IMG/VR virus record: IMGVR_UViG_2609459834_000013
Coordinates: 1 to 19,800 of that record
From: a virus
Taxonomy: Duplodnaviria; Heunggongvirae; Uroviricota; Caudoviricetes
DNA: 19,800 bases
Direction: 5' to 3' (one strand)
In this document: positions 13,591-14,652 of the stretch, in pieces
Layout of the letters: each line of letters starts with the position of its first letter
Position numbering within the stretch: position 1 is the first letter of the stretch
Made by a program: the position numbers and the translations under genes
Notes under the pieces: model-generated
The model's input: only the letters and a program-made list of their open reading frames with translations
What the model was told of the DNA's origin: nothing
The model's database searches: none

Positions 13591-13914
13591 ATGGATGCAC
13601 AAACACGCCGCCGCGAACGTCGCGCAGAGAAACAGGCTCAATGGAAAGCAGCAAATCCCCTGTTGGTTGGGGTAAGCGCAAAACCAGTTAACCGCCCTAT
13701 TCTCTCGCTGAATCGCAAACCGAAATCACGAGTAGAAAGCGCACTGAATCCGATAGACCTTACGGTGCTGGCTGAATACCACGAACAGATTGAAAGCAAC
13801 CTGCAACGTATTGAGCGCAAGAATCAGCGCACATGGTACAGCAAGCCTGGCGAACGCGGCATAACATGCAGAGGACGCCAGAAAATTAAAGGTAAATCTA
13901 TATCACTTATTTAG
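13591..13914 (+). CDS. N: antitermination protein N (107 aa)
   Basis: Track ORF 13501..13914 (TTG-extended); from the internal Met, [57 protein letters not shown]… is recognised as lambda N. Confidence 0.9.
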
Positions 13915-14401
13915 AAAATGCAGATTTAGGGAACAGATAGGAGGCGTTACACCTATGGCATCTCATCCTATGGTTAGAAGGTGGTGCAAATCCTTCATAT
14001 TGAAGTATGGATTTCACAGAAGATTCATAGCATTGAGCGCAAAGATAGTGCATTGGCTGACCGGTATTTGCCGATTTTTTGAGACGATAAACCACCGTAG
14101 CAACAGTAGGTGTATACATCTCATAGTTTTTCTTTTCCTCTTCCCACTTAGAGGCTCGATTTATCTTTTCTTCAAGCTCAATAATCTTGTCCTTAGAAAT
14201 CATCAAAAGCTCATTAAGTGACATTTGCTGCTGTTGGGCATCCATGAGCTTATCGACAAGTTCGTATGTTTTTTCTTTTACTGAGTAGTCTATTTGCATT
14301 TTCTGGATTTCCTTTACTGCGCCAACAGCACTCATCAGAGCACCTCCGGCACCAGAAACTGCATCTGTAATCCTACTTATTATTCCTTTTTCATCAGACA
14401 T
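13907..14401 (-). CDS. hypothetical protein (164 aa) with Gly/Ala-rich N-terminal segment, coiled-coil middle and C-terminal CxxC…CxxC zinc-ribbon; oriented antisense to the pL operon
   Basis: Track ORF 13907..14410 (GTG-extended); ATG at 14401 preceded by AAGAGAG Shine-Dalgarno; 3' end overlaps N stop by 8 bp; AT-rich composition; no family recognised. Confidence 0.55.
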
Positions 14402-14417
14402 ATAAATCACTCTCTTA

Positions 14418-14462
14418 CTGTAGGGGTAAGAGGATTTTACTATTTTTCTCGCTGTAGGGGTA
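14418..14462. repeat. two 11-bp direct repeats CTGTAGGGGTA flanking a TAAAAT -10-like hexamer upstream of the antisense gene
   Basis: Exact copies at 14418-14428 and 14452-14462; on the minus strand they bracket TAAAAT (about 14434-14439). A 9-bp inverted repeat GTGTATTCA / TGAATACAC lies further upstream at about 14522-14549. Confidence 0.45.
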
Positions 14463-14611
14463 CACGAGAACCACCGAGCCTGATGTGGTTAAAAGACAGG
14501 CATACTAATAAACACTGCACTGTGTATTCATTCCAACGAGTGAATACACGGAGCAATGTCGCTCGTAACTAAACAGGAGCCGACTTGTTCTGATTATTGG
14601 AAATCTTCTTT

Positions 14612-14639
14612 GCCCTCCAATGTGAGGGCAGTTTTTTTT
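14612..14639 (+). terminator. intrinsic terminator (tL1-like) on the pL strand
   Basis: GCCCTC-CAATGT-GAGGGC hairpin followed by AG and a run of eight T, 13 bp before the next start codon. Confidence 0.7.
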
Positions 14640-14652
14640 GACGGAGTAAACG

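Follow-up and report, generated by a model that had tools for sequence, protein, structure and literature searches.

Rip1 was described by Patel, McCarthy, Taylor et al. (Nature 651:1060-1067, 2026, doi 10.1038/s41586-025-10075-1) as a pore-forming antiphage defence. According to the summary of that work given in a review (PMC13434031), the protein is prophage-encoded and harmless on its own, infected cells that contain it round up, and the mutations that allow escape lie in the small terminase of E. coli phages and in the portal of Pseudomonas phages. The review also outlines a cryo-EM structure in which 12 Rip1 monomers encircle an 11-mer small-terminase ring, the C-terminal half of the protein touching the ring and the N-terminal part being an amphipathic helix. 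The complex is summarised there as having a central pore, with dye release from liposomes and premature cell lysis. A matching account is given in a conference report (PMC12908700) and in PMC13601566. The mechanism as used below is based on the review summary of Patel et al., on the title of the PDB entry and on the conference report.

In lambda and P22, the slot beside N is occupied by sieB, in antisense orientation and abutting N. SieB is likewise a prophage-expressed abortive-infection function, whereas the protein is unrelated to Rip1 and has no zinc ribbon. In the lysogen, sieB is expressed from a minus-strand promoter while pL is repressed. SieB sequences contain a long hydrophobic stretch, noted by eye, from which we take the protein to be a membrane protein. 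In P22, a 105-nt pL-sense antisense RNA, sas, switches sieB translation, and the phage does not exclude itself; the self-immunity scheme consisting of Esc and sas is known for sieB only. A further prophage-expressed gene with its own promoter is tab of Pseudomonas phage JBD26, which has the Casadabanvirus hotspot in common with Rip1 homologues. Tab consists of 83 residues, acts through the tape measure protein to prevent the assembly of tails, has anti-Tab as its partner and does not form a pore.

The locus considered here belongs to a 19,800-nt stretch of a Caudoviricetes genome (IMG/VR record IMGVR_UViG_2609459834_000013, positions 1 to 19,800), referred to below as the window. The phage is lambdoid; its pL operon lies on the plus strand, and a divergent cro/cI pair is located at about 11.9-12.9 kb. 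The gene of interest occupies the same slot as HK446 rip1, in the same orientation and behind the same promoter module, in a phage that differs from HK446. The features of the locus are collected in Table 1.

Table 1. Coordinates of the features at the rip1 locus, in window positions.
Feature	Position	Strand	Remarks
nutL boxB hairpin	13466-13480	unstranded; block homologous to lambda nutL	first minus-strand terminator-like structure past rip1
N antiterminator gene	13591-13914	plus	96.9% identical to lambda N DNA; stop overlaps the rip1 stop
rip1 CDS, 164 aa (very probable assignment)	13907-14401	minus	ORF call; 163/164 identity to Rip1 of PDB 9OOX
Likely ribosome-binding site AAGAGAG	14410-14416	minus	read from the sequence; 8 nt 5' of the ATG
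Promoter-proximal repeat, TACCCCTACAG on the coding strand	14418-14428	minus	at or just past the expected transcription start
-10 hexamer TAAAAT, predicted	14434-14439	minus	between the two repeats; putative sieB-slot promoter
Promoter-distal repeat	14452-14462	minus	overlaps the position expected for a -35 element
Hairpin/inverted repeat GCCTG-N14-CAGGC	14478-14501	unstranded	far edge of the shared module
Inverted repeat, 9-bp core	14512-14559	unstranded	arms 14512-14533 and 14538-14559, 22 nt, 82% complementary
Intrinsic terminator, pL sense	14610-14640	plus	GCCCTC-loop-GAGGGC then T8; common to lambda and HK629

Identity and architecture of the encoded protein

The 164-aa minus-strand ORF converging on N that had been predicted from the sequence was recovered when counted from its ATG. 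An alternative GTG start at 14410 would give 167 aa; this GTG overlies the ribosome-binding site AAGAGAG, and in HK446 the counterpart gene is annotated as starting at the ATG, not at the GTG. The upstream length of 242 bp in the original prediction is correct if counted from the GTG only, and becomes 251 bp from the ATG. The description of the gene as markedly AT-rich was overstated: the ORF is only moderately so, with a GC content of 39.4% as compared with 47.3% for the window and 49.7% for N, and the neighbouring accessory genes are similarly low (36-43%).

When the protein was searched with phmmer against PDB chains, it matched "ring interacting pore 1 (Rip1)" of entry 9OOX with 163 of 164 residues identical (E 1.4e-105), and a profile search matched the same protein with an E value of 6.4e-82. 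This entry, released on 2026-02-04, is a cryo-EM structure of Rip1 from Escherichia phage HK446 together with the small terminase of Enterobacteria phage T6, and it contains 12 Rip1 chains. At the DNA level, HK446 is 99.8% identical over window positions 13565-15000, a stretch that includes N and reaches past the gene following rip1. Elsewhere the sequence is mosaic, 65% of the window aligning to HK446 with 97% identity, and the repressor of the window phage is presumably of the 434 type. Profile scans of the protein with Pfam, NCBIfam and PADLOC gave sub-threshold noise only; in PHROGs it matched phrog_1244 (E 4e-53), a family listed as function unknown. In the six RefSeq matches listed, the gene adjoins N and is annotated as "hypothetical protein". 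With models for the protein lacking in Pfam, NCBIfam and PADLOC 2.0, and with RefSeq labelling it hypothetical, it is no surprise that the first reading of the sequence failed to identify it; annotation lags publication here. The gene is nevertheless a known one, already published with structure and mechanism, and the window copy is essentially the HK446 allele. We therefore consider it very probable that this ORF corresponds to rip1 and that the prophage thereby has a one-gene defence against phages, placed in the slot used by sieB in lambda and P22. The proposal of a lysogen-expressed exclusion or abortive-infection factor is thereby supported, given the identity of all residues but one to a characterised prophage defence.

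A single-sequence AF2 model was discarded as too poor (pLDDT 55). The alignment-based AF2 model (20 homologues, pLDDT 69) comprises helices at residues 7-34 and 39-90 and beta strands in 93-158, and Foldseek with this model returned chain 9oox_M as the best match (E 2e-17, target TM-score 0.85), the next match having an E value of 0.78. Homology search and structure prediction, both put forward at the outset as checks, lead in this way to Rip1 of PDB 9OOX. Hydrophobicity and amphipathicity are both highest at residues 7-30 (mean hydrophobicity 0.3-0.4, hydrophobic moment up to 0.42), a segment rich in Gly, Ala and Ser and predicted to be helical. Such an N-terminal amphipathic helix fits the pore account of Rip1, in which it would be membrane-active. 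No substitution of C121, C124, C148 or C151 was seen in 20 homologues, the most distant of them 44% identical, and the four cysteines also align in the HK629 subfamily. The Gly/Ala-rich N-terminus, coiled coil and double CxxC noticed earlier correspond to the small-residue-rich helix, the long helix and the four invariant cysteines, respectively.

The Rip1 family is large: at E <= 1e-3 the protein matched 2962 representatives of clusters formed at 50% identity, and those listed are, with few exceptions, 140-220 aa long and matched over most of their length. Homologues of about 164 aa occur in Casadabanvirus phages (JBD30 gp30, D3112 orf25, DMS3, MP38; about 30% identity, E about 1e-17 to 1e-18), where their genes likewise run counter to the operon around them. 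In JBD30, D3112 and DMS3 the gene is flanked by the terminase genes and lies on the minus strand, matching the description in the review. A divergent homologue, HkaP of HK620 or gp43 of HK629, has the same length and four cysteines with 25-27% identity, and hhalign related gp43 to Rip1 with a probability of 98.4% (E 6.7e-15). It belongs, however, to a different subfamily, and in HK629 another gene lies between gp43 and N. No published functional test of the HkaP subfamily was found, the literature on "hkaP" giving unrelated acronyms only; a literature search on JBD30 morons and on a sieB promoter likewise found nothing relevant. Two other candidates were set aside. Tab is a different protein of 83 aa, set apart by its description. 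Tai (phi80 TaiEcA) was considered because of its context as a moron upstream of packaging genes, and was rejected after BLASTP against the candidate phi80 ORFs gp52 and gp49 (E 18 and 70).

Following the published account, an invading phage would make oligomeric rings of small terminase or portal, around which about 12 Rip1 molecules would bind via their C-terminal halves. The N-terminal amphipathic helices would then form a membrane pore, and the cell would be permeabilised ahead of progeny maturation, yielding an abortive infection. Among the features checked here, the amphipathic residues 7-30, the invariant cysteines and the 12 chains in PDB 9OOX fit this account.

The sole difference from HK446 Rip1 is at residue 95, which is Tyr here and His in HK446. 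Because this residue lies in the first strand of the ring-contacting C-terminal domain, the target range of the Y95 allele could differ. A stronger version, in which the allele is functionally shifted or inactive and knowledge of HK446 Rip1 is not directly transferable, would have in its favour that the substitution falls in the domain that, in the review of Patel et al. (PMC13434031), is reported to contact the phage ring. This version is nonetheless unlikely: Tyr or Phe is usual in the residue-95 column among the homologues and His is the exception, and the window ORF is intact. Among 5426 complete E. coli genomes, 96 have the gene, in every case on the chromosome; the copies are at least 95% identical over the whole gene in all 96 and at least 99% identical in 93.

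The boundary with N and the antisense reading

The stop codons of N and rip1 overlap by 8 bp (13907-13914), exactly as first described, and the scan called no terminator-like site between the two genes, in agreement with the earlier statement that no terminator intervenes. Past rip1, the minus-strand site at the nutL boxB consists of GCCCTTCTTCAGGGC followed by TAAATTTTTA. A rip1 transcript may consequently run antisense over all of N; that it would end at the reversed boxB is speculation.

These observations could be read to mean that the locus acts mainly as RNA, a minus-strand transcript into N exerting antisense effects on N or pL, with the protein being secondary. The overlapping stop codons would fit, as would the lack of a terminator-like call before the reversed boxB (13480-13466), and sas of P22 provides a precedent for an antisense RNA at the same locus. 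We regard this as highly improbable, since the protein is conserved as a protein, with 2962 cluster representatives, invariant cysteines and, for nearly all those listed, a length of 140-220 aa matched near full length. The HK446 protein, one residue away, has a solved structure and, as far as the review summary goes, a reported defence activity as a protein (PMC13434031). Moreover, the family also occurs between the terminase genes of Pseudomonas phages, where N is absent, and with pL repressed in the lysogen there would be no N mRNA for an antisense RNA to act on. The known antisense RNA of P22 targets sieB, not the N homologue. The antisense interference on N that the original prediction had raised is a guess; the known case, sas acting on sieB, points in the opposite direction. 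The protein reading, i.e., rip1 as a defence gene, is the one retained below.

A conserved upstream module with interchangeable cargoes

Upstream of the gene, the repeat CTGTAGGGGTA is present in two exact copies with a spacing of 34 bp, around the -10-like TAAAAT, as the earlier reading had it; the similarity extends to 16 nt at 14/16. By our own arithmetic, about 0.01 exact 11-mer pairs would be expected by chance in 250 bp. The DNA directly preceding lambda sieB shares 87% identity with segment 14417-14502, in which the -10 and the two repeats lie, and the DNA preceding HK629 gp43 shares 98% identity with 14399-14635. When the viral contigs of IMG/VR were scanned for the distal repeat plus its flank, at least 119 loci were found. 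They outline a module of about 90 bp (14411-14502 in the window) with the order hairpin, repeat, TAnnnT -10, repeat, which precedes differing cargo genes.

The distal repeat and its flank constituted the search pattern, and the invariance of this repeat is thus partly by design. The promoter-proximal repeat lay outside the pattern and is kept in 111 of the 119 IMG/VR loci among the matches listed, as well as upstream of lambda sieB and HK629 gp43, so that the conservation of the repeats in related elements holds. It is the last conserved element, the cargo-specific sequence starting directly after it; the AAGAGAG stretch, for instance, is cargo-specific, being present in the HK629 variant and absent in lambda. 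Among the matches listed, TAnnnT is invariant over 49 distinct module variants (TAAAAT, TAAACT, TATAAT, TAACAT). TAAAAT was not among the sites called in a sigma-70 consensus scan, and no -35 match was seen; it is from conservation that we infer promoter activity at this hexamer. As for the dedicated regulation that had been suggested for the gene, a probable promoter independent of pL is upheld, whereas the region itself is a generic sieB-slot module common to unrelated cargo genes.

At the far edge of the module, a hairpin stem of at least 5 bp is present in 45 of the 48 distinct variants listed, as compared with a 5-bp stem in 11.6% of trials with shuffled sequences. Its arms are of the types GCCTG/CAGGC, GCCGGG/CCCGGC and ACCCGG/CCGGGT, i.e., with compensatory changes. 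RNAalifold on the 49-variant module alignment gave a weak structure only (-1.9 kcal/mol) and missed this upstream hairpin because of alignment gaps, which is why the stems were counted directly. An Rfam scan of 13300-14800 yielded no credible match. The 9-bp inverted repeat that had been assigned to the control region of the gene is real, and its arms extend further than described (Table 1), but it is part of a pL-operon segment and not of the rip1 module. Indeed, lambda has a counterpart of window positions 14507-14637 (97.7% identity) beyond ral, and the strong pL-sense terminator also belongs to this segment, outside the module.

A second hairpin was observed in the module variants of Rip1 and HkaP. 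At 14411-14433, the proximal repeat lies in the loop of a 7-bp hairpin, CTCTTAC/GTAAGAG, whose 3' arm overlaps the ribosome-binding site. Read on the plus strand, where a T-rich run comes after it, this hairpin was called as a terminator-like site; in the lambda and P22 variants it is not conserved.

Behind the module, the cargoes include SieB proteins of the P22 type, of the lambda type and of two further SieB-like groups, all of which match Pfam PF14163, as well as Rip1 proteins of the HK446 type (at least 14 loci) and of the HkaP type (at least 6 loci), plus a few others. SieB and the two Rip1 subfamilies are thus interchangeable cargoes of one conserved module beside N. The earlier placement of the gene in the sieB/ral hotspot is borne out, lambda sieB having the same slot and the same antisense orientation and abutting the N stop codon. 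That the gene itself encodes a SieB-type superinfection exclusion protein, as slot, orientation and upstream module identical in kind to those of lambda sieB would allow, is refuted at the sequence level and carries practically no probability: PF14163 matches four of four SieB-like representatives scanned (lambda SieB and three from the module loci, E 6e-9 to 1e-29), whereas the window protein has no match to it at E up to 1 and no BLASTP similarity to lambda SieB. The gene is accordingly treated as rip1 in what follows, and the sieB slot appears as a simple site to mine for more single-gene defences.

Some contigs depart from this pattern. In five of them (L012, L023, L030, L073, L100), the second repeat and the start of the cargo are replaced by a G/C hairpin, CCCCCTTATTTTGTCAGGGGG, which suggests a variant slot whose cargo is lost or different. 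Divergent module variants with other small cargo ORFs were seen in L122 (7284-7390 and downstream) and in L014. One of these small cargoes, 80 aa long and beginning with MSDIPEMIF, matched nothing in Pfam and resembles neither SieB nor Rip1.

Probable expression and silencing, and neighbouring genes

In the phage, rip1 is a prophage accessory gene ("moron"), placed on the opposite strand in the pL operon with a conserved -10 upstream. In the lysogen, it would be transcribed from its own weak promoter (TAAAAT -10, no -35) in the sieB-slot module, independently of the repressed pL. Once pL is derepressed, strong N-antiterminated transcription would pass antisense through rip1 and its promoter and would probably silence rip1. 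Such silencing by pL would help the prophage avoid setting off its own defence. By analogy with P22, a sas-like shut-off of rip1 is plausible, and a pL-sense RNA resembling sas might have its 3' end at the hairpin at the module edge. The convergent pL arrangement thus offers a testable answer to how a lambdoid prophage with Rip1 escapes its own Rip1 at induction.

A bolder reading, which we hold as tentative and rather doubtful, is that the module 14411-14502, with its hairpin, two ACCCCTACAG copies and TAnnnT, constitutes a portable expression-and-silencing device of the sieB slot. In one version of this reading, the module could specify a counterpart of sas, or sites for an unknown factor, shutting off SieB or Rip1 once pL fires. 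If this were true, Rip1 prophages would gain self-immunity without a protein antidote, and the second repeat would also mark the junction of cargo exchange.

Regarding the surroundings, N is followed by an "anti-restriction" ORF, cIII, kil and recombination genes. The ORF at 14653-14901 on the plus strand, just past the pL-sense terminator, encodes an acidic protein of 82 aa; the HK446 copy is labelled "anti-restriction protein" in RefSeq. Ral of lambda lies about 340 bp further upstream, and both Ral and orf28 are absent from the window. On the other side of N, directly after cI and at the position of lambda rexAB, an ORF at 12810-13286 on the plus strand has a signal-peptide-like start at an internal Met. 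Its HK446 counterpart is gp39, annotated as similar to Sf6 gene 38, and the ORF may encode a second lysogen-expressed accessory protein.
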